NCBI GenBank assembly: GCA_050730835.1
Contig: JBOHNS010000003.1
Location: 1-59,035 of the forward strand
Direction of reading: 5' to 3'
Origin: Candidatus Saccharimonadales bacterium
Lineage (GTDB): Bacteria > Patescibacteriota > Saccharimonadia > Saccharimonadales > UBA4665
DNA length: 59,035 nucleotides
This document shows positions 9,997 to 59,035 of the stretch, in pieces; within the stretch, counting starts at the first letter, position 1; each line of letters begins with the position of its first letter. The position numbers were made by a program, and so were the translations under genes. The notes under the pieces were generated by a model that was not told the DNA's origin, did not search any database, and saw only the letters and a program-made list of their open reading frames with translations.

Positions 9997-10944
9997 ATGC
10001 AATTTGCTAAAACCAAAACCGAATTTTTGGAATATTTGGAAATCGAGCAAAACCGCTCGCAAAAAACCATCGCCAATTACGACCATTATTTGACGCGCCT
10101 AATCGATTTTGCCGGTGACGATATTGCGCTCAGCGACATTACGCCGGAGCTAGTCCGCAAATGGCGGCTTTGGCTAAACCGGCTAGGCACAAATACTAGC
10201 GACGAACTGCAAAAATCGACCAGTAATTACCATTTAATCGCGCTTAGAAGCTTCCTGAAATTTTGCGCCAGGCGCGATATTCTAGCATTACCCGCCGATA
10301 AAATTGAGCTGGCTAGGACCGTCAGAAAACAAGTAACTTTTCTCAATGAAAGTGAGTTGAACAAATTATTTGCTCAGCCTGACCTCAATAAATTAAGTGG
10401 ATTACGCGACCGAGCGATTTTGGAATTGCTATTTTCTAGCGGCTTGCGCGTCTCAGAACTGACCAATTTAGACCGCGACCACGTCAATTTAACCCGCCGC
10501 GAATTTATGGTCCGCGGCAAAGGCCAAAAGGATCGCCCGATTTTCATCAGCCCCGAGGCCGCCAAATGGATTGATCATTATTTGCAAAAACGCCAAGACA
10601 CGGCCGCGCCACTATTTGTGCGCTACCGCGGCGCTAAGACTATCGATAATAGCGGCAATTACAGCCGTTTAACACCACGCAGCGTGCAGCGCTTAGTCAG
10701 CCGCTACGCTCGTCTGGCCGGCATCACCAAGCACGTCAGCCCACACACTTTGCGCCATAGTTTTGCCACAGATTTATTAATGAACGGCGCCGATTTGCGC
10801 AGTGTCCAAGCCATGCTCGGCCACAGCAACATCGCCACCACTCAAATTTATACGCACGTAACCGATCCGCATCTCAAAAGCGTGCACGAGCGGTTTCACG
10901 CCAATGTAAGACAAAACTTAAAATCCTTGGGAAGTCTAGATTAA
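9997..10944 (+). CDS. xerC: Tyrosine recombinase XerC/XerD family
   Basis: C-terminal catalytic region HTLRHSFATDLLMNGADLRSVQAMLGHSNIATTQIYTHV (R-H-R-Y signature) and an N-terminal SAM-like core-binding domain. Confidence 0.85.
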   Translation: MQFAKTKTEFLEYLEIEQNRSQKTIANYDHYLTRLIDFAGDDIALSDITPELVRKWRLWLNRLGTNTSDELQKSTSNYHLIALRSFLKFCARRDILALPADKIELARTVRKQVTFLNESELNKLFAQPDLNKLSGLRDRAILELLFSSGLRVSELTNLDRDHVNLTRREFMVRGKGQKDRPIFISPEAAKWIDHYLQKRQDTAAPLFVRYRGAKTIDNSGNYSRLTPRSVQRLVSRYARLAGITKHVSPHTLRHSFATDLLMNGADLRSVQAMLGHSNIATTQIYTHVTDPHLKSVHERFHANVRQNLKSLGSLD

Positions 10945-14474: not shown

Positions 14475-15326
14475 CTAGCCGATGAATAAATTTTTGTACC
14501 AGGTGATTACGCCAGCGCCAAATAAATAGGTGATGACGGTCGCGAGCATCAAAAACGGGCCAAACGGAACCTGGCTGCGGCGATTCATGTGTCCGAAAAT
14601 CATAAACGGCAATGACGCGATGGTGCCGGCCAGCGAGGCGATAAATAGCATCAGCACAGCTTCGGCCGGCTCGGCCAAAATTAGCCCCAAAATCACGCCC
14701 AATTTGACATCGCCGCCGCCAATCCAGCGCCCGCGCGAAACTTCAAACAACACGAAAAAAAATCCGGCGGCAATCAACACGCCGTAAACCGCGCCCAGCA
14801 AACTGCTTAAATCGCCGCCAAAAACCGTAATCATAATTAAAGCTTGCCAGGCCGCCAAACCAATCAACGGAAATACAATCCGATTGGGCAAAAGCTTCCA
14901 GCGCAGGTCATAAACGCTAAGCGCCGTAAAGCCGACTATAAAAGCCAGCCATAAAATAAACTGAAACAGCCCCACGCCGCTAAATCCGAGCGGCCAAAAA
15001 TAATACGAAAAAACAAATAGTCCGGGCACGATAATTTCCACCAGCGGATATTGCTTTGCAACCTGCTTCTGGCAATAGCGGCATTTACCGCGCAACCACA
15101 GCCAGCTAAAAACCGGCAGCAAATCGCGCACGGCTAGTTCCTGGCCGCAGCTTGGACACATCGAATGACCGCGAAAAATCGACAGCTTTTTCAGCCGCGC
15201 CTTGGTTTTTTTAGATTTTTTGGATTTGGCTATTTTGGCCTGCTCGTGCAGCCGCCAGACCAGCGCATTGCAAAAACTGCCCAGCGCCAATCCCACCACA
15301 ATCAACACCACAACAATCACAAACAT
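14475..15326 (-). CDS. pilD: Prepilin peptidase (A24 family)
   Basis: CPSCGQELAVRDLLPVFSWLWLRGKCRYCQ zinc-binding N-terminal domain followed by a polytopic membrane domain. Confidence 0.85.
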   Translation of the reverse strand: MFVIVVVLIVVGLALGSFCNALVWRLHEQAKIAKSKKSKKTKARLKKLSIFRGHSMCPSCGQELAVRDLLPVFSWLWLRGKCRYCQKQVAKQYPLVEIIVPGLFVFSYYFWPLGFSGVGLFQFILWLAFIVGFTALSVYDLRWKLLPNRIVFPLIGLAAWQALIMITVFGGDLSSLLGAVYGVLIAAGFFFVLFEVSRGRWIGGGDVKLGVILGLILAEPAEAVLMLFIASLAGTIASLPFMIFGHMNRRSQVPFGPFLMLATVITYLFGAGVITWYKNLFIG

Positions 15327-15339
15327 TAGCCTTATCGTA

Positions 15340-15393
15340 ACACAAAAAGGCGCCCCATGTTTTAAGGTTTAATTAAAAACCGTGGGACGCCTT
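15340..15393 (-). terminator. Putative intrinsic terminator/attenuator downstream of the major pilin gene
   Basis: Minus strand AAGGCGTCCCACG, 21-nt loop, CATGGGGCGCCTT, then TTTTTGTGTT. Confidence 0.45.
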
Positions 15394-15426
15394 AAGGTTT
15401 ACAATTTATTACAATTTATGCTTTAT

Positions 15427-15975
15427 CTAATCGTTGATGCATTGATTGGCCGGTGAGCCACCAGTTTCTGTTTGGTAAAGAATGGCGACCGAGCGAGATC
15501 GGGCCTTGGCAGCTACGCCAGTTCCGGTAGGGTTACATTCTTCGCCGGTGTCTACTACGACAGTTTCTGTGGTGGGCTGCGTACCGGCTCCTGGACCTTG
15601 TTGATATTCCATTGATACGGGAAGTGTTGACAGGCCAGGGTCGTAATAACCAAGTTTTGCGGATTCAATGTTCTTGTCGGTTGAGTCACAATGAGTTGTA
15701 CCTTTAGTGCACAAAAATTCAACTGATCTAGACGATCCAGCTTTTTGCACTGTGTCGGGGAACTGGCCGCCATTATTGTCAATGTAATTAGAAAGCGCCG
15801 CACCGATGGCTGAGACGTCGTTTTTGCGCTGAGTGTTGCGGGCGCTGCGCTGCAAAGCTGGAACGGCCAAGAAAACGATTAATAAGATTAATCCGGCAAT
15901 GGCCAAGACAATCATGGTTTCGATGATGGTGAAGCCCTGATTATCAGATTTTCGTTGTTTAATATTTGTTATCAT
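15427..15975 (-). CDS. pilA: Major type IV pilin
   Basis: NQG/FTIIETMIVLAIAGLILLIVFLAVPALQRSARNTQRKND. ATG at 15975 is preceded by AAAGGGG. Sits between pilC and pilD. Confidence 0.75.
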   Translation of the reverse strand: MITNIKQRKSDNQGFTIIETMIVLAIAGLILLIVFLAVPALQRSARNTQRKNDVSAIGAALSNYIDNNGGQFPDTVQKAGSSRSVEFLCTKGTTHCDSTDKNIESAKLGYYDPGLSTLPVSMEYQQGPGAGTQPTTETVVVDTGEECNPTGTGVAAKARSRSVAILYQTETGGSPANQCIND

Positions 15976-17649: not shown

Positions 17650-18717
17650 TTATTCCCTCATCAATCGTTCAAGTTCTTCCATGTCGACGGCCACATTGCG
17701 CGCTTCTTCATAAGTAATGGTGCCGTCTTTGACCAGGCCGACCAAATTTCTGTCCATCGATTGCATGCCAAATTCAGCGCCGGTTTGGATGACGGCCTCC
17801 AACTGGTGACTTTTGCCTTCGCGAATAATATTGCGCACCGCCGGCGTAGCCACCAAAACTTCGGCCGCTACCACCCGGCCGCCACCAATGGACGGCACCA
17901 GCCGCTGCGAACAAATGACTGTCAAAATGTTGGCCAGCTGGGCGCGGATTTGCGATTGCTGATGCGGCGGGAAAACGTCAATCATGCGATCAATACTTTG
18001 CGACGCGCTGTTGGTGTGCAGCGTGGCAAACACCAAGTGCCCAGTTTCGGCAATCGTGATGGCGCTCGCGATCGTCTCTAAATCACGCATTTCGCCGACC
18101 AAAACCACGTCCGGATCCTCGCGCAAAGCCGAGCGCAGCGCCGCGCTAAAAGAATAAGTATCATAATGCACCTCGCGCTGCACGACAATCGATTTTTTGG
18201 ATTTGTGGGTGTATTCGATTGGGTCTTCGATGGTGATGATGTGCTTGGATTGTTCACTGTTGATGCGGTCGACTAATGACGCCAAACTGGTCGATTTGCC
18301 CGATCCCGTCGGACCAGTAACCAGCACCAAACCGCGCGGATAATTAGCAAACTTGCTGACAACCGCCGGCAAACCGAGCTGCTCGACGCTCAAAATTTCG
18401 TTCGGGATCAGCCGCAAAGCCGCTGCCATATTGCCGCGCTCGTGAAAAGCGTTGACCCGAAATCGGCCGAGATCGCCGAAGGCGAAGCTGAAGTCGAATT
18501 CTTTGTCTTTGAGCAATATCTGCTTTTGGTCCTCGTCCAAAATGGCAAACACCAGCGTCTCCAGCGTTTCTTCGGTCAATAAATCGGCGCCGTGCACAGC
18601 GACCAGCGTGCCGTCAATCCGAAGCATCGGCGGCAGCCCGACCTGCAAGTGCAAGTCGGAAGCTTTTTTGCGCACGACTTCTTCCAGCAAAACTTCGATT
18701 TTAGGCTGGCCTTGCAC
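17650..18717 (-). CDS. pilT: Twitching-motility ATPase PilT
   Basis: ASDLHLQVGLPPMLRIDG, Walker A GPTGSGKST, Asp box, His box. GTG at 18717 preceded by AAGGGAG. The longest ORF (to 18756) starts in the degenerate heptamer repeat. Confidence 0.9.
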   Translation of the reverse strand: MQGQPKIEVLLEEVVRKKASDLHLQVGLPPMLRIDGTLVAVHGADLLTEETLETLVFAILDEDQKQILLKDKEFDFSFAFGDLGRFRVNAFHERGNMAAALRLIPNEILSVEQLGLPAVVSKFANYPRGLVLVTGPTGSGKSTSLASLVDRINSEQSKHIITIEDPIEYTHKSKKSIVVQREVHYDTYSFSAALRSALREDPDVVLVGEMRDLETIASAITIAETGHLVFATLHTNSASQSIDRMIDVFPPHQQSQIRAQLANILTVICSQRLVPSIGGGRVVAAEVLVATPAVRNIIREGKSHQLEAVIQTGAEFGMQSMDRNLVGLVKDGTITYEEARNVAVDMEELERLMRE

Positions 18718-24603: not shown

Positions 24604-27600
24604 TCAAAGTATCGGCGGCAAACTGGTTATCGCCTGCACGGTCGGCCCCTTTTTCTGGTTCGGATAAGTCAGCCACACTGACGGCGAGTAGTCAAATTCC
24701 TCGGCAGCAGAATTGCCTGATCCTGAACCGCCAGATCCGCCGCCGCTACTACCGCCTACTGATCCGCCGCCACCTGATCCACCCGGTCCCGAGCCACCCG
24801 ATCCGCCGCCACCAGAACTGCATCCCCCACCATGGTGTCTGCCCCCACCACGAGAAAGTATACATTTAGCCGTAATGATTATAGGATTCATGGATTGGTT
24901 ATTAAGTTGTACGCTGGCAGCCTTGGCTCCAAACGACGGCCCCGCGCCAGGACTAGCCAAATGAATTGTCGAAACATCGCCAGCGCTATCGTAGGCCGTC
25001 CGATGCAGCGTAAGACTAGACGCCACCAGACTGCCATTGACGACCAAATTGGTGTCGCCGCAAGTCTGGGCTTTCGGCGCGCTGCCATCAGGCGGCGGAT
25101 CATAAAACCAGTCGGCCTGGCCAATGCCCGCACAATCATTAATCGTGCCGCCGTTTTCGGCCACATATTGGCCGGCCAATTTGCCGACGTTATTATCGAT
25201 ATTAATATCCCCGCCATCAGTAATTATTTCCAAATTCGGCATTTGCGATAGTTGAGATGTTACGCCGCCGTATGTAATATCGCCGCTAATAGTTATCGCC
25301 CCGCTGGAATATATGGCGATGTTGCAACCGAGCGGTATCGTGGCGCCGGAAATCGTGCCGCCAGCAACTTGATAGGCGTGGTGGCCCGAACAACCGTTGA
25401 TGGCTCCCGTCAGACTGCCGGATGGCAATGTCGTAAGCCCGGGATTGGTCTGACCGGTGGCGTAATAATTGCTGCCGCAATCGCTGGAGCTGGCGCCAAA
25501 ATACCCGCCATAGGGTGAACTATTCGTATTAGAAAACGTCAAACCTGTCGGCGGCCCCGGCCCGCTGTTCTGCGAACTGGCAAATTGATCGATCGCGGCG
25601 GCTGCAAAGGCTGCCAGCTGCGTGCCGGCGCCAGCATAACCGCCAGCCGCGTCTCGGTTAAAAGCCGCAATCGGCGCGCTGCTATTGGTGCACTGAAACG
25701 GCGCGCTGGCCGTGCCGGCTGCCGTCGTAGTCCCGGCCACAGCATCGCCGCCAAAAACTTTCAAATATGGCTCGGCATGAGTATAGGTCGAGCAAGTGCT
25801 GGCCGGCGGCGGATTGGGCTGGGCGCGCATACCAACCGTTGCAACTCTGCCGCCTGCGCTATTAACAGCCAAATGTCCCCACGGCGTTTTGGTGCTAATG
25901 GTGCCGTGCGACGGATTGGTGCTCAAATCAAAACAAACTTTATCACCATATTTCAGCGGCGGCAAACTAACCGGAAAATTCCAACTAACGCCCACCGTGC
26001 CAGTTGCAGTTGAGCCAGTTCCATAAGGCCCATAGGACGATTTTAGATTAGGACTAACCGTGCCGCCATAAGTACCGCTCGCCACAATTGAGCCATTGTT
26101 CGTTTGATGGAACACACTAACCGTCACGTGCGTATCAATGCCACTAACCTCAGAAGCCACGCGCAAATTCTTGCCGGCCGGCCCGTCCTCGGACTCATCA
26201 AACTTAACCTTTACCGAACCGTTATAAGTAGCCTGGGTCGGATTTTCCGGATCATTAATATTAGACGTCCCGTCCTGCGGCACCAAATCATACGTCCGGT
26301 TGAAGCAGGCGTTCATATTGTAGCCATTGGCATCGGACTCCGTATTAACATAATCCGTAGCCGGCGTAACGCCTTGATGCCAGTCGTACCACGGTTGTCC
26401 GGTGTAGGTGTTGGCAAGGTGAGTACAAGTGGCATTCTGGCCGCCACCGCCCGTATCGCCAGCATTGCAATAGGAAAAGTCAAAGACTTGAAAATTAAAG
26501 CCACTAATACAGTTGCCTTGTGCATCAAAAGCTGTGCACTGAAACTGGGTGCTAAAGACATTCGTGGCAGTATAATGAGTATAGTGATGGCAAGTGCTAA
26601 AGGTTCCATTAAGCGTATCGCCGCCGTTACAGGTATAATAATCTGGGCTAGACGATGAATACCAGTTTGTCTTGGTGTAATAGTCTTGGTAGCTAATCGA
26701 AGCTTGGTTATGATCATACGGATAAGTGTTGACAAACGGCGTGTAATCAACCGTGGCGCTGGTGAACGCGCCCTTTGTGCCAGCGGGCGGTTTGGAAGTT
26801 AGCGCCACTGCGCTGCCCCCAATGGCCGTGCTGCTTAAATCATTAACACTATTAATTTTTGTCTGGCCGTCTTTCTTCCGCTGCGTGTATTGATCGTTAG
26901 GAATGGTTGTGGCGCCGCTTTTGCCCGAGTCGTCTGCGAAAGTATTGGGCAATGGAATGGTAACTATGGTATTAGTCGCAATCCTCGGATCCCCCGGGCA
27001 GTTAATAGTCGTTGGCGGCGGTATAGGCGGCATAACATTTCCATTACCTGCTACCAGATTATAACAGAGACCAGAACCACGGCTACCCGGATCGCTTGTA
27101 CCGGTCACGGCTTTATCAATTGCTTCAATGCCGATCGTATTCGTGTTGCCCGGGCCAGTGTTTAATAGGCTTAGATAGCTTGCTAAATTCAGCGAGAAAT
27201 TAGCTGCGGTACTATTACTTTCGGCGGCGGTTGGGGTGCCATTGATATATAGCCTGGCCCAGTCATCTGCGATGCCCTCAAAAGTAGCTCCGCCCGCTTT
27301 GATATCAGCCAAATCTGCTGGAGTTATTGTAAAACTTTCCTGAAACAGGCCTATTCCGTTTGAGTAAACATTATCTGGAGCTCTGGCACCCCTCGGATAA
27401 TTTTGATAGTACAAACCTGGAGCACCTTCACCTGTATACATTTGGTCGACAGGATCTTCACTAGTGCCGTATGGATAATTGCTTGGCCATATTGCTGTAG
27501 CATTATTATAACTAGAGCAACCGTCCAACTTACTGGAAAAGCCAGATCCGACGCCGCCAAGGTTACCTCCGCTTGTGCCCCAACCACCGAGGCTTGTGCC

Positions 27601-53112: not shown

Positions 53113-55260
53113 TTAAGCTCCTGATTTGTCGCCGTTTGATTCTTGATCCACCGCTCGCATGCTTAATTGCAGGCGTCCGCGGTCGTCGATGGCGACTAAT
53201 TTTACGTCTACAAGATCGCCTTCTTTTACTACGTCGCTTGGGCGTTCGACCCGCTCGTTTTTCATAGCGCTAACGTGAACTAATCCATCTTTGCCTGGCA
53301 ATATTTGCACGAAGGCGCCAAAATCAAGGACGCTAACTACTGGCACGCCGCGGTAAATCCTGCCGACTTCTGGATCTTCGGTGATGTTTTGAATGTACTG
53401 TTTGGCGGCGTCGATTGAAGTTTTGTCTGGGCTAGCGATCATTACTGTGCCATCGTCTTTGATGTCGATCTCGGCGCCGGTTTCGGCGATAATTTTATTA
53501 ATCGTCTCGCCGCCCTTGCCGATAACTTCGCGGATTTTGTCAGGATTGATATGAATCGCTTCGACTTGCGGCGCGAACGGGCTAATTTCCTTGCGAGCTT
53601 CGGCCAGAGTTTGCAACATGCTGTCTAGGATATAAGCGCGGCCATCCTTGCCTTGCATTAGCGCCTGCTTCAAAATTTCTGGAGGCAGACCGTGGACTTT
53701 CATATCCATCTGCAAAGCGGTAATGCCTTTGCTCGTGCCTGTTACTTTGAAATCCATATCACCCGCGAAATCTTCCGCGTCAGCGATATCGCTCAAAATC
53801 ACAATCTTATCGCCTTCTTTCATTAAGCCCATAGCGATGCCGCTAACTGGGGCTTTTAATGGCACGCCGGCATCCATTAATGCTAGACAACTAGAGCAAG
53901 TCGCCGCCATAGATGTCGAGCCGTGCTGGCTCATGATTTCTGTGACGCTACGAATAGTGTATGGAAATTCTTCTACGCTAGGCAAAACTGGGATAAGCGC
54001 ACGCTCGGCCAAGTAGCCGTGACCGATTTCGCGGCGGCCTGGCGAACCAAGTCGTTTAATATCGCCTGTGGTATAACCTGGCGCGTTGTAGTGATGGATG
54101 TAGCGGCGCTCGCCTTCGCGCTCCATGGTATCGACTAGCTGCGCGTAAGAAGTCGAAGCTAGCGTAACGATGTTCAACCCTTGCGTCATACCGCGAGTAA
54201 ACAGTGCCGAGCCGTGAGTTCTAGGCAAAATTCCGACTTCGCTAGACAGGTCGCGGATGTCGGTTGATTTGCGGTTATCGGGCCGCAAGCCGTCTTCTAA
54301 TATACCTTTTCGTACGTCTTTATTCGCGGCGCTAGCGAAAGCGTCGTGATAATCATTGCGAACTTTAGCAAATTCTTCTTCGCCAAGTTCTTCCTCAAAA
54401 TGCGCTATTAAATCTTGCAGCAAAACGTGCATTTTCTCGTGGCGCTCCGGGTAAGTGCCGCGCAACTCTGCGCCCATTTTGCCCTCTAGCCATTTATTAA
54501 CTTGGGTTTGAATGTCTTCACTAGGCAAGCTAAGTTCGTATTCTTGCTTGGTTACGCCAACTTTTTTGACTAGCTCGTTTTGTAGTTCAACCGCTGGCTG
54601 AATAGCCTGATGCGCGTATTGCAAAGCCTCGGCCACTTCGTCTTCAGAAACTTCGTTAGCGCCAGCTTCAACCATCATAATCGCTTCTTTGGTGCCGGCT
54701 ACAACTAAATCTAGCTTACCTTCGTCGAGTTCCTGCGGCGAGGCGAAAGCTTTGAACTTGCCATCAACCATTCCTACGCGCACACCAGCCACCGGTCCGT
54801 CAAACGGCGCGCCGGATAGCATAAACGCTGTGCTCATGGCGATCATCGCAACCATGTCTGGGCGGAAGCTTGGATCCATAGAAAGCATTGTAGCGACACC
54901 CTGCACTTCGTGCCGGTAGCCTTTCGGCCACAACGGGCGAATTGGCCGGTCAATCAAGCGGCCGATTAAAACGGCGTCGTCGCTAGGACGGCCTTCGCGC
55001 TTAATAAACCTGGAGCCGCTGATTTTGCCAGACGCGTACATTTTTTCTTCATAATCAATACTTAGCGGAAAATAATCCATGCTAACCGGCTTTTCGCTAG
55101 CCATCGCCGTGCCTAGCACAACCGTATCGCCGTAGCGCACAATCACGCTAGCGTCGCTACGAAAGCCAACGCGGCCAACTTCTAGCGATAACGTCCGACC
55201 GCAAAACTCAGTCTCGACTTTTATAATTTCTTTACCAAACGGGTTAATTGTCTGCCCCAT
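53113..55260 (-). CDS. pnp: Polynucleotide phosphorylase
   Basis: Two RNase PH domains, then KH (IGKGGETINKI) and S1 (GRIYRGVPVVSVLDFGAFVQILPGKDGLVHVS). Confidence 0.95.
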   Translation of the reverse strand: MGQTINPFGKEIIKVETEFCGRTLSLEVGRVGFRSDASVIVRYGDTVVLGTAMASEKPVSMDYFPLSIDYEEKMYASGKISGSRFIKREGRPSDDAVLIGRLIDRPIRPLWPKGYRHEVQGVATMLSMDPSFRPDMVAMIAMSTAFMLSGAPFDGPVAGVRVGMVDGKFKAFASPQELDEGKLDLVVAGTKEAIMMVEAGANEVSEDEVAEALQYAHQAIQPAVELQNELVKKVGVTKQEYELSLPSEDIQTQVNKWLEGKMGAELRGTYPERHEKMHVLLQDLIAHFEEELGEEEFAKVRNDYHDAFASAANKDVRKGILEDGLRPDNRKSTDIRDLSSEVGILPRTHGSALFTRGMTQGLNIVTLASTSYAQLVDTMEREGERRYIHHYNAPGYTTGDIKRLGSPGRREIGHGYLAERALIPVLPSVEEFPYTIRSVTEIMSQHGSTSMAATCSSCLALMDAGVPLKAPVSGIAMGLMKEGDKIVILSDIADAEDFAGDMDFKVTGTSKGITALQMDMKVHGLPPEILKQALMQGKDGRAYILDSMLQTLAEARKEISPFAPQVEAIHINPDKIREVIGKGGETINKIIAETGAEIDIKDDGTVMIASPDKTSIDAAKQYIQNITEDPEVGRIYRGVPVVSVLDFGAFVQILPGKDGLVHVSAMKNERVERPSDVVKEGDLVDVKLVAIDDRGRLQLSMRAVDQESNGDKSGA

Positions 55261-55453
55261 TTTTCTCCTTTTCAGTAGGTAACAAGGTTCAAGCCACCGC
55301 TTTTAAATAAAAGCAGAAACCTGTGCTTTATCACCCACGATTAATTAATTATTCCCTAGAATTTCAAGGTTCTAGATTGTTATTTCTAGCTATGACTAGC
55401 TAAACCTAATGTCCAAAATCCAAACCCTAGGAGAATTTATAAATGATCTAAAA

Positions 55454-55720
55454 CTAGCGGCGAATGCCGAGCTTTTTGATTAGAGCGAGGTAAGCCTGGC
55501 TATCTTTATCGGCAATATATTTAAGCAAGCGGCGGCGTTTACCAACCAGCTGCAATAGCCCACGGCGCGCCATAAAATCGTGCTTGTTAGCCTTCAAATG
55601 CTCTGTAAGTTCCTTAATCCGCTCGGTCATAATTCCAACCTGAACTGCGCTAGAACCAGTATCTTTTTTATCAGCCTGTAAATCTTTTACAATAGCCTGT
55701 TTCTTCTCACCTGTAATCAT
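55454..55720 (-). CDS. rpsO: 30S ribosomal protein S15
   Basis: GSSAVQVGIMTERIKELTEHLKANKHDFMARRGLLQLVGKRRRLLKY. Standard rpsO-pnp gene order. Confidence 0.9.
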   Translation of the reverse strand: MITGEKKQAIVKDLQADKKDTGSSAVQVGIMTERIKELTEHLKANKHDFMARRGLLQLVGKRRRLLKYIADKDSQAYLALIKKLGIRR

Positions 55721-55866
55721 GTAGGAACTACTTTAACAGAGACTACCCTCAATTGCAACCCAAAAAGTTTGTACACCAAAATCTTCAAATCTCAAGCCCA
55801 AAAACAACTACTAATTAAAATTCACATTTTTCTTACCCGTTTTAGGACGATCCTAAAGACTAAGGG

Positions 55867-56772
55867 TCAAGAATCCTTCGTCGCAACAATGACTTCGTTG
55901 TATTCGCCCATGATTCCTTTATTTTTGTCATACTGCGCAATAATCCTGGCATTCAAACCAGAGCTTTTTTTAATAAAACCAACGATATCATAACCCCAAT
56001 GCATCGTTACTGGAGAGCCATTTACATCAACTGGATTAAGGTGCCGTTCTGGTTCATGTAAAAAGATTGGGGCGCCGTCTTTACTTTTCTTTGCCCAAAT
56101 CTCAGTTCTCATGTGTTTGTTAATCATAGGTACCGTGAAGATGTAGGCACCACCAGTTTTGAGCGTGCGAGCTACTTCTTGGAATACTTTTTTAGGATTA
56201 TATATGTGCTCTATAACGTCCAGGGTGACAACCAGGTCAAAACTTTTGTCTTTGAAAGTTTGTTTTTCAAGGTCTTCGTTGCGAAAACCATCGACGATGG
56301 CACCGAACTTATGGTTAGGAAAATACTGTGTTGGCTTGTAGTGCTTGGCCTTATTTTTTAATCTCGGGCTAGCGCCTCGGCTTGAGGGTGAACTTTCATG
56401 AATTTTCATATCCTTCCAGTTTGGATAATATTCTTCGAGCACTGTCATCAAAGCCCGCTCCCTGGGTATAGATTGACAGCTTGTGCACAAGTAGTTATCT
56501 CTCAACCAGCTATCGCGCGCCGTGAAAACCACGCTTCTATCGCAACACGCACAATAGCCCTTGTGTGAAAAATAGTAGTCACCACCGATAATACTTTCGA
56601 CATCCGTCTCCTTAGGCTGTGAAACCCTAGAGTCTTGCGTGACTTGTGAAATGACTTTTCTGGCAAATCGATATGTAGTTTTAGCTAGTGGTAACCTTGC
56701 GGCTAATCTATGAACTTGAACGTGGAACTCTGTCACAAAAACTATGCCCTCATGATTAATGCGATCTTTCAA
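55867..56772 (-). CDS. Class I SAM-dependent methyltransferase with an N-terminal Cys4 zinc ribbon
   Basis: CACCDRS...CTSCQS, then FDLVVTLDVIEHIYNPKKVFQEVARTLKTGGAYIFTVP. Confidence 0.6.
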   Translation of the reverse strand: MKDRINHEGIVFVTEFHVQVHRLAARLPLAKTTYRFARKVISQVTQDSRVSQPKETDVESIIGGDYYFSHKGYCACCDRSVVFTARDSWLRDNYLCTSCQSIPRERALMTVLEEYYPNWKDMKIHESSPSSRGASPRLKNKAKHYKPTQYFPNHKFGAIVDGFRNEDLEKQTFKDKSFDLVVTLDVIEHIYNPKKVFQEVARTLKTGGAYIFTVPMINKHMRTEIWAKKSKDGAPIFLHEPERHLNPVDVNGSPVTMHWGYDIVGFIKKSSGLNARIIAQYDKNKGIMGEYNEVIVATKDS

Positions 56773-56908
56773 TCATCATAACACACCTACACAGACCCGG
56801 GCGATACGAAAGGAAAACTAAGAAAACTAAGGGGCTGGGATTTTAAGGGATTTTAAGGGGCTGTCCCGTAACAGATGGCCAAATTACAAATATTGATTTT
56901 GGGGATAG

Positions 56909-57169
56909 TTATTTATACAACTGGCTGTGCGTGCCTACAGCCACAAAAAGCGCGACATCATTATCTAAAATTTTGAAATGCGCCCGCCAATCGCCCCCGA
57001 AAGAAATTGAGTTGTGGTCTTGCCACTGGCCGGTTAATGGATGGTTGTACAGACTGGGATGATATGGTTCGGATTGAAATAAGTCAATCGCTGTCCTAAG
57101 GCGCTTTATCTGCGTAGGTTGCAATTTTATAACTTGTTTCTGGAACGACTTATGGTAGCGCAACTTCAT
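56909..57169 (-). CDS. YafQ/RelE-family toxin, paralog 1
   Basis: HPLTGQWQDHNSISFGGDWRAHFKILDNDVALFVAVGTHSQLYK. Confidence 0.7.
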   Translation of the reverse strand: MKLRYHKSFQKQVIKLQPTQIKRLRTAIDLFQSEPYHPSLYNHPLTGQWQDHNSISFGGDWRAHFKILDNDVALFVAVGTHSQLYK

Positions 57170-57171
57170 TT

Positions 57172-57453
57172 TTAAGTAGATTTTTCGAGGTGCTCAAACA
57201 TTTCGTCGGCAGAATCAAAAGCCGGGGATATATTTTTGCCGGCCGCGTAATCGGCTTCGGCTTCGTGTATAAGTTTTTTAAGATAAGGCGTTGGCTCTAA
57301 GCCTGTACCCACGACAATCCGCCGGTCGCGCAGCGCTTGGCGGACAACGACGTTCACGAAAGTCGTTACCGGCATGCCCAGCTGGGCCGCAAAAGCCTTT
57401 ATCTCTTGCTTGGTTTTGTCGTCCGTTTTAAAACTCAATAATGTTTTACTCAT
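57172..57453 (-). CDS. DinJ/RelB-type antitoxin, paralog 1
   Basis: MSKTLLSFKTDDKTKQEIKAFAAQLGMPVTTFVNVVVRQAL. Confidence 0.65.
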   Translation of the reverse strand: MSKTLLSFKTDDKTKQEIKAFAAQLGMPVTTFVNVVVRQALRDRRIVVGTGLEPTPYLKKLIHEAEADYAAGKNISPAFDSADEMFEHLEKST

Positions 57454-57515
57454 AGTTGTGTATTGTATGCTTATAGCACATACAAGTCAATACCGACTAA
57501 CCTATTCACTTTAAG

Positions 57516-57815
57516 CTAATTAAAGCTTTTTAGAATTTGCTCTGCGTTTAAATTTTGTAAATTCAACGCTTTTTTAGTCTCGAACTTGCCGACCTTTGTG
57601 CGGTTTAGGCCGGACATATAGGCGCCGGTTTTTAGGTTTTTGCCTAGATCTTCTACTAGGCTGCGGATGTAGGTGCCGCTGGAAACTTCGGTGGTGAACT
57701 CAACTAATGGGTAGTTATAATTTTTTAGTTCGATTTTGTGGATGGTTATTTGTATAGCTGGCTCAAGCGTGCCCACGGCTACGAAAAGTACGACATCGTC
57801 ACGTCGACTATCCAA
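57516..57815 (-). pseudogene. truB: 3' fragment of tRNA pseudouridine-55 synthase (truB) fused in frame to a remnant of a YafQ-type toxin 3' end
   Basis: Residues ...EFTTEVSSGTYIRSLVEDLGKNLKTGAYMSGLNRTKVGKF match the TruB C-terminal region. The first about 20 codons (DDVVLFVAVGTLEPAIQ; 57744..57805) are a frameshifted copy of the toxin end DVALFVAVGTHSQLYK. No TruB N-terminal catalytic domain lies upstream in the window. Confidence 0.6.
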
Positions 57816-57848
57816 GGATGATTACGACTAAAATACGCCTAATCGCAT

Positions 57849-58076
57849 CTACTTTTTCTGCAAAAAATCGTGGGGCGTGATGTCGATGTCTTTGCAAATT
57901 TGCCGGAGCAGAATTGGCGACAGGTCGCGGCCGCTGTGCATTGGCACAGTTGTCGCGCGACCATCGGCATGGCGGAATTGCTGATGCGAGCCTTTTTGTC
58001 GCGCCATAAAAAATCCGCGCGCTTCTAGCAGCTTGACCACTTGTTTGGGCTTAAGAACGGGTAGCTCGCCGCCCAT
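57849..58076 (-). CDS. hicA: HicA toxin
   Basis: LKPKQVVKLLEARGFFMARQKGSHQQFRH. Confidence 0.85.
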   Translation of the reverse strand: MGGELPVLKPKQVVKLLEARGFFMARQKGSHQQFRHADGRATTVPMHSGRDLSPILLRQICKDIDITPHDFLQKK

Positions 58077-58080
58077 TAAG

Positions 58081-58305
58081 CTAAACCACCACTAATTGCG
58101 TGCCGACAAATGTCGCTTCCGGCCGACGGCGGGACGAGCCGGTTTCATCCAGCACTAGCTGCACCACCTCTTGCAAATTGGCTTGCAACTCTTCCAATGT
58201 CTTGGCCTGCGTGTGGGCGCCAGCCAAATCCGGCACATAAGCGACGTAATAACCTGTGGCTGTATCTTTTTCGATAACGGCCGTGAATTGACGAGTTGCT
58301 TTCAT
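58081..58305 (-). CDS. hicB: HicB antitoxin
   Basis: FTAVIEKDTATGYYVAYVPDLAGAHTQAKTLEELQANLQEVV. ATG at 58305; longest ORF reaches 58344. Confidence 0.75.
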   Translation of the reverse strand: MKATRQFTAVIEKDTATGYYVAYVPDLAGAHTQAKTLEELQANLQEVVQLVLDETGSSRRRPEATFVGTQLVVV

Positions 58306-58432
58306 AATATATATTTTAACACAATATTGCGCCTGAAGCGCCACAAGGCAAAAAGCGGCTCTAGAGTTCTAAGAATCTGCCCCGTAACAGATAGCAAAAT
58401 TACCAATATTCAAATATTGGTTTTGTGAGTGG

Positions 58433-58693
58433 TTATTTGTATAGCTGACTGTGTGTGCCGACTGCTACGAACAAAGCGACATCATTATCTATAATTTTGT
58501 AATGCGCGCGCCAATCGCCACCGAAAGATATTGAATTGTGGCCTTGCCACTGGCCGGTTAATGGATGATTGTACAGGCTGGGATGGTTTGGCTTGGCTTG
58601 GAATAAAAGCAGGGTCGCCTTTAGGCGTTCCTTTTGTGCCGGTTTTAGCTTTGCGGCTTGTTTGTGCCATGATTTGTGAAAGTCTATGACCAT
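58433..58693 (-). CDS. YafQ/RelE-family toxin, paralog 2
   Basis: HPLTGQWQGHNSISFGGDWRAHYKIIDNDVALFVAVGTHSQLYK. The C-terminal half is nearly identical to paralog 1. Confidence 0.7.
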   Translation of the reverse strand: MVIDFHKSWHKQAAKLKPAQKERLKATLLLFQAKPNHPSLYNHPLTGQWQGHNSISFGGDWRAHYKIIDNDVALFVAVGTHSQLYK

Positions 58694-58712
58694 AAAGGAT
58701 AAAGGTAATTTG

Positions 58713-58988
58713 CTAAAAGGTGTCTAGATAGGCTTCTAGTTCAGCTTTGTTATTAACCCGGGTTATATTTTTGCCGGCCGCGTAGTCAGCTTCAGCTTCC
58801 CGAATCAGTTTCTTTAGATACGGCGTCGGCTCTAAGTCGGTGCCAATAACAATCCGCCGGTCGCGCAACGCTTGGCGGACAACGACGTTCACGAAAGTTG
58901 TTACCGGCATGCCCAGCTCGGCCGCAAAAGCCTTTATCTCTTGCTTGGTTTTGTCGTCCGTTTTAAAACTCAATAATGTTTTACTCAT
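58713..58988 (-). CDS. DinJ/RelB-type antitoxin, paralog 2
   Basis: The N-terminal 55 aa are nearly identical to paralog 1; the C-terminus differs. The upstream flank 58989..59035 is identical to 57454..57503. Confidence 0.65.
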   Translation of the reverse strand: MSKTLLSFKTDDKTKQEIKAFAAELGMPVTTFVNVVVRQALRDRRIVIGTDLEPTPYLKKLIREAEADYAAGKNITRVNNKAELEAYLDTF

Positions 58989-59035
58989 AGTTGTGTATTG
59001 TATGCTTATAGCACATACAAGTCAATACCGACTAA

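Follow-up and report, generated by a model that had tools for sequence, protein, structure and literature searches.

How does the 3' end of truB come to lie among toxin-antitoxin (TA) genes, joined in frame to the remains of a toxin, and has truB itself been broken in the process? These questions are raised by one end of a 59,035-nucleotide stretch of DNA (hereafter the window) from a Candidatus Saccharimonadales bacterium (GenBank assembly GCA_050730835.1, contig JBOHNS010000003.1). The window is an entire contig of the genome, C3, and position 59035 is the contig end. Two pairs of YafQ/RelE-type toxin and RelB/DinJ-type antitoxin genes (tox1-anti1 and tox2-anti2), a hicAB pair and a truB fragment lie there on the minus strand, the fragment being part of an open reading frame (ORF 57516-57815) that begins in a third, incomplete toxin copy (tox3-psi). 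The original prediction saw in this arrangement a mosaic of duplicated TA cassettes around a truB fragment, and all the features it listed, including three toxin 3' ends, were recovered in place by repeat finding, BLAST and hidden Markov models. As argued below, the locus is probably a recombination scar, a new example of mosaicism between TA paralogs in which a microhomology joint has duplicated the 3' end of a gene, set in the truB-rpsO spacer, here holding TA modules, of a small Saccharibacteria-type genome.

An orphan truB 3' end and an intact truB on another contig

The truB fragment encodes the last part of the catalytic domain, without the catalytic Asp motif, followed by the C-terminal TruB_C_2 domain. 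ORF 57516-57815 scores 41.9 bits against TruB_C_2 (cut-off 29.3), but against TruB_N it reaches only 19.9 bits (cut-off 27.3), over positions 118-149 only and without the Asp motif, and so does not qualify as a TruB synthase. No TruB_N match above cut-off was found in the window. The sole such match in the genome (0.95 Mb in 49 contigs, 98% completeness) lies on contig C13, at C13:3-824, and scores 168.5 bits. This gene carries VGHTGTLDPLATG (the GHTGTLDP catalytic motif), aligns over its full length with its relatives, as expected of a genuine synthase, and runs off the start of its contig eight codons short of the expected stop. The original prediction had left open whether truB was disrupted or complete just beyond position 59035. 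The first possibility is excluded: truB is neither lost nor disrupted, and a working copy is present on a neighbouring contig. The second is right about the intact copy, which would lie next to the window if the contig join proposed below is correct. Among 5.8 billion proteins, no TruB comes closer to that of C13 than 66% identity, and the nearest named relatives carry the annotation Candidatus Saccharibacteria. The C13 protein has an insertion of ~55 amino acids (residues ~33-88) in common with its two closest relatives (282-283 amino acids); most TruB relatives (228-240 amino acids) are without it.

Fragment and intact gene are close but distinguishable copies. Positions 57541-57748 and C13:1-208 are 95.2% identical, differing at 10 of 208 positions (5 synonymous and 5 non-synonymous differences, omega 0.27), without indels. 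The differences include a TCC/AGT serine switch. The Glu residue of the SLVEDLG motif is present in the orphan fragment and in all five aligned relatives, and is replaced by Ala in the intact C13 gene.

Where the toxin stub meets truB

The toxin part of ORF 57516-57815 was originally described as a 60-bp remnant. A remnant is present, but it is longer (~98 nt) and decayed, and it stays in the toxin frame for its first ~10 codons only (DVVLFVAVGT). It is ~79-80% identical to tox1 and tox2, with indels that include a 1-nt insertion. With ~33 codons left, and with GTHSQLYK turned into GTLEPAIQ by the extra nucleotide, it is not an intact YafQ toxin gene. The same insertion carries the reading past the toxin TAA into the truB frame. 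Because the chimeric frame is created by a 1-nt insertion in a decayed stub, the in-frame fusion of toxin and truB is probably incidental, an accident of decay.

It could be argued instead that the chimera is functional, and that the ORF encodes a free-standing RNA-binding domain (TruB_C_2), tagged at its N-terminus with toxin sequence, that perhaps modulates tRNA binding or the activity of TA systems. Its 99 codons are open, its truB part has suffered no indels and shows an omega of 0.27, and the conserved Glu of SLVEDLG is kept. Such a role is nevertheless extremely improbable, for several reasons. The sole start is a TTG that lies 33 nt past the end of hicA and has no visible ribosome-binding site; ahead of the joint the frame stays open only by virtue of the 1-nt insertion; the omega value is drawn from 10 differences only; recent copying or gene conversion accounts equally well for the high identity; and no counterpart was seen among the 40 relatives searched. 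ORF 57516-57815 is most likely a pseudogene, presumably not expressed.

The joint itself is abrupt, and the six nucleotides at its centre are perfectly common to the toxin stop region and to truB. The similarity between the cassette flank and truB at this point, already pointed out in the original prediction, withstands a formal test. The best truB match of the first 19 nt past the tox1 stop falls exactly at the fusion point (16/19, equalled in 0 of 2000 shuffles of truB), and the corresponding 19 nt past the tox2 stop match the same place at 15/19 (6 of 2000 shuffles). The look-alike stretch corresponds to truB codons ~207-213.

Old toxin-antitoxin pairs and a recently shared module

The toxins tox1 and tox2 are full-length and score above the curated cut-offs of PF15738 (YafQ_toxin, 30 bits) and TIGR02385 (RelE_StbE, 27.9 bits), as members of the YafQ/RelE family should, while failing the stricter TIGR00053 YafQ equivalog (40.8 bits against 87.25). 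The antitoxins fall below the TIGR02384 cut-off of 45.65 and match Pfam RelB (PF04221) weakly (E values of 0.016 and 0.031); their position and size fit RelB/DinJ. The likeness to DinJ-YafQ and RelB-RelE systems extends to the gene arrangement, a small antitoxin gene of ribbon-helix-helix (RHH) type directly upstream of a toxin of ~86 amino acids with the RelE fold, behind its own sigma-70-like promoter, and to the presence of several paralogs per genome. It stops at the antitoxin scores, which remain under the RelB_DinJ cut-off, and at the modular reshuffling of the two pairs, which share promoter and antitoxin N-terminus and do not share antitoxin C-termini or toxin N-termini. Between them lies a HicAB system, recognized by HicA_toxin and HicB-like domains in adjoining genes (Table 1).

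Synonymous divergence (dS) separates these parts sharply. Since dS is 2.1 between the toxin genes (omega 0.08) and 0.74 between antitoxin codons 36-72 (omega 0.07), the two TA pairs are anciently diverged paralogs, both under purifying selection. Antitoxin codons 1-35, by contrast, are nearly identical (dS 0.05), the C-termini having diverged; the truB tail shows a dS of 0.12; and the promoter flank shows no difference in the 47 nt seen, 58989-59035 being identical to 57454-57500. A recent tandem duplication of the whole TA cassette is ruled out, as a toxin dS above 2 is set against 97-100% identity in the truB/flank module. The idea of duplicated TA cassettes thus applies to the truB tail, the flank and antitoxin codons 1-35, which were shared recently, and does not apply to the pairs.

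The shared stretch, which I call module H, is a near-identical (97-100%) direct repeat of ~0.48 kb with a period of 1,535 bp. Its exact core measures at least 193 nt as observed and 233 nt if 40 unseen nucleotides at the contig break are identical too. Identities in consecutive 40-nt windows are 100, 82, 95, 97, 100, 100, 100, 100, 100, 95, 90, 80 and 85%, with 100% held over the truB stop, the flank and the antitoxin start. After the module, only 33-58% identity is left over the antitoxin C-terminus and toxin N-terminus; the middle of the toxin recovers to 80-92%, and beyond it identity drops again. To judge by the alignments, such a patchwork would be expected where neighbouring paralogs have recombined repeatedly.

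Table 1. Features of the truB-rpsO region, in window coordinates unless a contig is named.
Feature	Coordinates	Strand	Remarks
SAM (S-adenosylmethionine)-dependent methyltransferase	55867-56772	-	rpsO and pnp follow further along the minus strand
M repeat, copy t1	56831-56908	-	directly past the tox1 stop; left part TAACTATCCCCAAAATCAATATTTG, core ATCTGTTACGGGACAGCCCC, then 2 x TTAAAATCCC
tox1, YafQ/RelE-type toxin	56909-57169	-	86 amino acids, intact; PF15738 39.0 bits; TIGR02385 42.1 bits
anti1, RelB/DinJ-type antitoxin	57172-57453	-	93 amino acids; TIGR02384 33.0 bits, E=5e-8; directly upstream of tox1
Promoter flank, copy 1	57454-57515	-	TTGACT-17-TACAAT at 57490-57462; between truB-fragment stop and anti1
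Module H, copy 1	57300-57748	-	truB tail, flank, 5' third of antitoxin gene
Orphan truB 3' fragment	57516-57748	-	last 77 codons + stop; PF16198 (TruB_C_2) 41.9 bits
Recombination joint	57743-57748	-	TAACCA perfectly common to toxin stop region and truB
tox3-psi, third YafQ-type toxin	~57749-57846	-	decayed 3' third; found by BLAST and repeat finding; abuts the hicA stop
hicA toxin	57849-58076	-	75 amino acids; PF07927 70.5 bits (cut-off 27)
hicB-like antitoxin	58081-58344	-	PF15919 30.8 bits (cut-off 27); likely start ATG at 58305
M repeat, copy t2 (M')	58356-58432	-	past the tox2 stop; right half diverged
tox2, YafQ/RelE-type toxin	58433-58693	-	86 amino acids, intact; PF15738 37.4 bits; TIGR02385 40.1 bits
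anti2, RelB/DinJ-type antitoxin	58713-58988	-	91 amino acids; TIGR02384 29.9 bits, E=5e-7
Module H, partner	58835-59035 + ~40 unseen nt + C13:1-208		
Promoter flank, copy 2	58989-59035	-	47 nt, cut by the contig end; TTGACT-17-TACAAT

The contig break and what the assembly permits

The original prediction also suspected that the window edge hides a second copy linked to truB. This is borne out by the intact truB of C13, whose 208 nt of similarity to the fragment would begin ~40 nt beyond the edge. Expressed in the coordinates of the internal copy, the edge of the window corresponds to 57500 and the start of C13 to 57541, leaving ~40 nt unseen. Exact matches to that copy make up the final 116 nt of the window and the initial 77 nt of C13, and no other contig end in the bin matches it. 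Gene order upstream of truB, on C13 and on its neighbour C31, agrees with that of the closest relatives. There is thus a good probability that C13 abuts the window end, in which case flank copy 2 is expected to continue into the intact truB. The minus-strand order across the gap would then be truB (C13), flank-anti2-tox2-M', hicB-hicA, tox3-psi with the truB fragment, flank-anti1-tox1-M and methyltransferase-rpsO-pnp. Many other contig ends of this genome show exact overlaps of 127 nt, the mark of a de Bruijn assembly with k=127, and the contig breaks here because the exact repeat core exceeds this apparent k.

The same circumstances invite the objection that the assembly has paired the wrong arms of the repeat. 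The true structures might be a truB-anti1-tox1 chromosome accompanied by a 1,535-bp circle or tandem array, or C13 and C3 might come from different strains. A genome in 49 contigs fits a metagenome bin; the exact repeat (~233 nt if the 40 unseen nucleotides are identical) is longer than k; the window end and the C13 start both lie inside it; and a 5% difference between truB tails could be strain variation. An artefact of this kind is nonetheless unlikely. The joint between stub and truB is internal to the contig with unique sequence on both sides, so it must be real in at least some molecules, and with 10 differences from C13 in 208 positions, the fragment did not arise by collapsing or duplicating a single set of reads. 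An assembly duplication beside an intact truB, the outcome that would have dissolved the puzzle, is therefore encountered in its second half only: an intact gene is probably adjacent, but the fragment differs from it and is joined to unique sequence. The arms flanking the exact core differ on its two sides, and the assembly graph therefore fits three structures, namely one integrated unit, a tandem array, or an empty site plus a 1.5-kb circle. The path that the contig takes, leading from hicA to anti1 by way of the fragment, occurs only in the integrated and tandem forms.

Outside comparisons added little. An exact-protein look-up of anti2 and a search of metagenome contigs with a 29-nt flank pattern gave no match, an Rfam scan of 55000-59035 produced no more than two chance matches, both below threshold, and the literature yielded nothing specific to an arrangement of truB tail and TA genes.

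A repeat beside the toxins and a second gene with a duplicated 3' end

The sequence past the tox1 and tox2 stops belongs to a repeat of ~80 nt, here called M, of which pattern searches and nhmmer found six clear copies and one weak one in the genome. The clear copies occur next to TA toxins and a Y1_Tnp gene only. No copy of M was found in 150 genomes of this family with up to 2 mismatches allowed, nor, as an exact match, in viral contigs or GTDB genomes. A role as terminator, as attC site or as repetitive extragenic palindromic (REP) hairpin was considered and rejected, since on both strands the DNA folds no better than its shuffles (z -0.03 to -1.84). The weak match (C44:5605-5647, nhmmer E=3e-4) is inside the coding sequence of an arginyl-tRNA synthetase and may be chance or an old insertion that is now translated as part of the protein.

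Three M copies lie on contig C35, one after vapC and two, inverted, around a Y1_Tnp gene that is IS200-like and resembles REP-associated tyrosine transposases (RAYT; C35:17674-18288, 41.5 bits against a cut-off of 23, with 42.4 against 80 for the RAYT equivalog). The surroundings of this gene recall the truB locus. An intact DNA glycosylase gene of HhH-GPD type (C35:15047-15583) has its last 319 nt duplicated at 18366-18684, 3.1 kb downstream of its own, with 89% identity and an omega of 0.42. Between the intact gene and the duplicate (a locus spanning C35:15047-18685) are a response regulator, VapBC and the Y1_Tnp gene with its inverted M repeats, and the duplicate is joined to the right end of M (the outer copy) at the microhomology CCCAG. 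Both loci, then, consist of an intact gene, a TA-bearing insert and an orphan 3' end.

This parallel is one argument for regarding the locus as the work of a mobile cassette, a unit of 1,535 bp (truB tail, DinJ-YafQ, M', HicBA and toxin stub) that inserts in the 3' ends of genes and supplies a replacement end. Its own ends would be made at M by Y1 (HUH, RAYT-like) transposases, and re-integration would proceed by homology, much as with the circles of insertion sequence common region (ISCR) elements. Such circles are the source of the duplicated 3'-conserved segment in complex class 1 integrons. The restricted company kept by the low-copy M repeat, its inversion around the Y1_Tnp gene, and a glycosylase 3'-end duplicate joined to M with VapBC and a Y1 gene in between all speak for such a cassette. 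So do the left end of M, which is the very part that resembles truB at the joint, and the conserved Glu of the orphan tail, as expected of a displaced native end.

A mobile cassette is distinctly unlikely all the same. The window holds no Y1 gene and the locus has no integrase nearby. The joint at truB involves the left end of M and that at the glycosylase gene its right end, and M folds no better than shuffled sequence, unlike REP elements or IS200/IS605 ends. M was not found in the other genomes searched, so that mobility between genomes is undocumented, and none of 40 relatives has such a truB duplication. Finally, the repeat does not stop at truB but runs on into the antitoxin gene, a continuation that would not be expected of a site-specific event. 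The more specific proposal that the 1,535-bp truB unit and the 3.1-kb glycosylase unit are products of a single lineage-specific capture-and-reinsertion system, built on M and a RAYT-like HUH enzyme, must be rated as very unlikely. If it were true, this ultra-small genome would contain a recombinase-free shuttle that carries small TA pieces into the 3' ends of housekeeping genes.

Known systems offer partial parallels. In REP/RAYT and ISCR elements, as on C35, a Y1_Tnp gene lies between inverted repeats and flanking segments are duplicated beside captured genes; the differences are a score below the NCBIfam RAYT cut-off, an M of ~80 nt that is not clearly palindromic and has only six clear copies, and a window without a Y1 gene. 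Integron cassettes come to mind too, since small, promoter-proximal TA cassettes are here each followed, past the stop codon, by a related element of ~80 nt with an imperfect inner palindrome. However, of the marks of an integron cassette with its attC site (IntI, RYYYAAC/GTTRRRY and a folded bottom strand), there is no integron integrase, the R' candidate GTTACGG misses GTTRRRY when judged by eye, and the folding is not significant; in addition, M stays conserved beyond the would-be crossover point.

Other repeats and TA genes are scattered through the genome. Two more Y1_Tnp (IS200-like) genes lie inverted ~4.7 kb apart at C23:22215-22448 and 27161-27391. A third DinJ-YafQ pair (C34:15231-15814, within 15090-15942), 68% identical in DNA to the anti1-tox1 region, is bracketed by 116-nt direct repeats (87% identity) with runs of the heptamer GGTAGAA, a TTGACA-17-TACAAT promoter lying just inside. 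Further one- or two-gene units, including VapBC, are bracketed by direct repeats of 56-150 nt spaced 400-700 nt apart (C46:593-1492, C31:9350-10135, C4:22692-23412 and C21:8708-9240), and on C46 the bracketing sequence is formed by the 3' end of the gene upstream.

The truB-rpsO spacer in related genomes

The order truB-rpsO-pnp was found in all ten of the related genera inspected. Their spacers measure from ~0.1 to 5 kb and carry unrelated cargo, including tail-fibre-like proteins and hypotheticals. Judged from these genomes, the truB-rpsO spacer appears to be a variable site in this bacterial family. An eleventh relative, of a different genus (G006), has the same gene order, and its spacer (C6:2253-6676 of that genome) holds two TA pairs, one of RHH-RelE/YafQ-like type that starts 29 nt past the end of truB and a DinJ-YafQ pair just ahead of rpsO. 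The spacer looks like a TA hotspot, a recurrent landing site for the RelE/YafQ-type TA family. Among the 40 relatives searched none has a comparable extra piece of truB, one (G013) giving two full-length matches and another (G035) a split one.

The two closest TruB relatives (P0002 and P0003, 64-66% identity, from Logan contigs) are arranged differently, truB being followed by a cmk-like gene, hrcA and grpE. In the present genome hrcA-grpE lies inside contig C28, away from truB, and the synteny of P0002 and P0003 was dropped as a guide for this reason. Gene order downstream of truB has changed within the lineage.

How the truB fragment may have arisen

The scenario favoured here is that recombination in a TA-rich spacer left the truB fragment behind as a non-functional by-product. 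The two boundaries of module H differ in kind: one fades inside the homologous antitoxin genes, and the other is an abrupt illegitimate joint at TAACCA, where the flank past the toxin stop resembles truB. The TAACCA lies within the 16/19 match, and the opposite boundary lies within antitoxin homology. Homology on one side combined with microhomology on the other points to RecA-dependent or illegitimate recombination and not to a dedicated recombinase. The original prediction had proposed either recombination through about 20 bp of homology or a cassette that targets this sequence. Recombination through short homology fits; targeting has no support, with no recombinase nearby, 40 relatives negative and an old pseudogene as the stub at the joint. 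The single gene for a tyrosine recombinase (PF00589) in the genome lies at 10339-10866, 47 kb away, and none is found near the locus.

Three routes may be envisaged. A break between tox3-psi and anti1 could have been repaired on the truB-anti2 template, by gap repair or gene conversion. Alternatively, unequal crossing-over could have been followed by conversion. A third possibility is a homology-anchored insertion of DNA from a related strain, in which case the orphan fragment would be the displaced native tail. The retained Glu and the differences, including the serine switch, may favour this third route slightly, although there are only ten of them.

The locus resembles the outcome of the homology-facilitated illegitimate recombination and microhomology-mediated repair that have been described for naturally transformable bacteria. 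Here too there is extended homology at one boundary (the 5' part of the antitoxin gene, or truB) and a microhomology of 6 nt at the other; the difference is that intragenomic gene conversion explains the data equally well. Another precedent is provided by integrative elements that replace the 3' end of their target gene, such as phage 21 and e14 in icd of Escherichia coli. Such elements likewise leave an intact functional gene, inserted DNA and an orphan, slightly diverged 3' end. The present locus departs from them in having no nearby integrase, a repeat that enters the antitoxin gene, and an insert of ~1.5 kb with TA genes only. An integrase is missing from the unit itself, the repeat measures ~0.48 kb and no such truB tail exists in the 40 relatives, so that the locus does not qualify as a site-specific integrative element.

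Three observations weigh against a simple recombination scar. The divergence of the truB tail is uneven, 7 of its 10 differences falling in one 40-nt window and being followed by at least 193 observed nucleotides with none, a distribution that a single recent event leaves unexplained. The Glu retained by the fragment hints that the fragment may be the displaced native end and that the tail of the intact gene may have come from elsewhere. The glycosylase case suggests something more systematic than a one-off accident.

Implications

For annotation and assembly, these results explain a contig break and show that truB is intact. ORF 57516-57815 is most likely a pseudogene fragment and should be annotated neither as TruB nor as a toxin. 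The direct repeats, a few hundred bases long, leave the locus liable to gain, loss and amplification. The locus also exemplifies the evolution of TA systems in a reduced episymbiont genome, old partners, toxin and antitoxin C-terminus, being kept together by selection while the promoter and the DNA-binding N-terminus are exchanged from one copy to another. Should mobility based on M and Y1 enzymes prove true, Patescibacteria would have a hitherto undescribed means of mobilizing defence or addiction genes.

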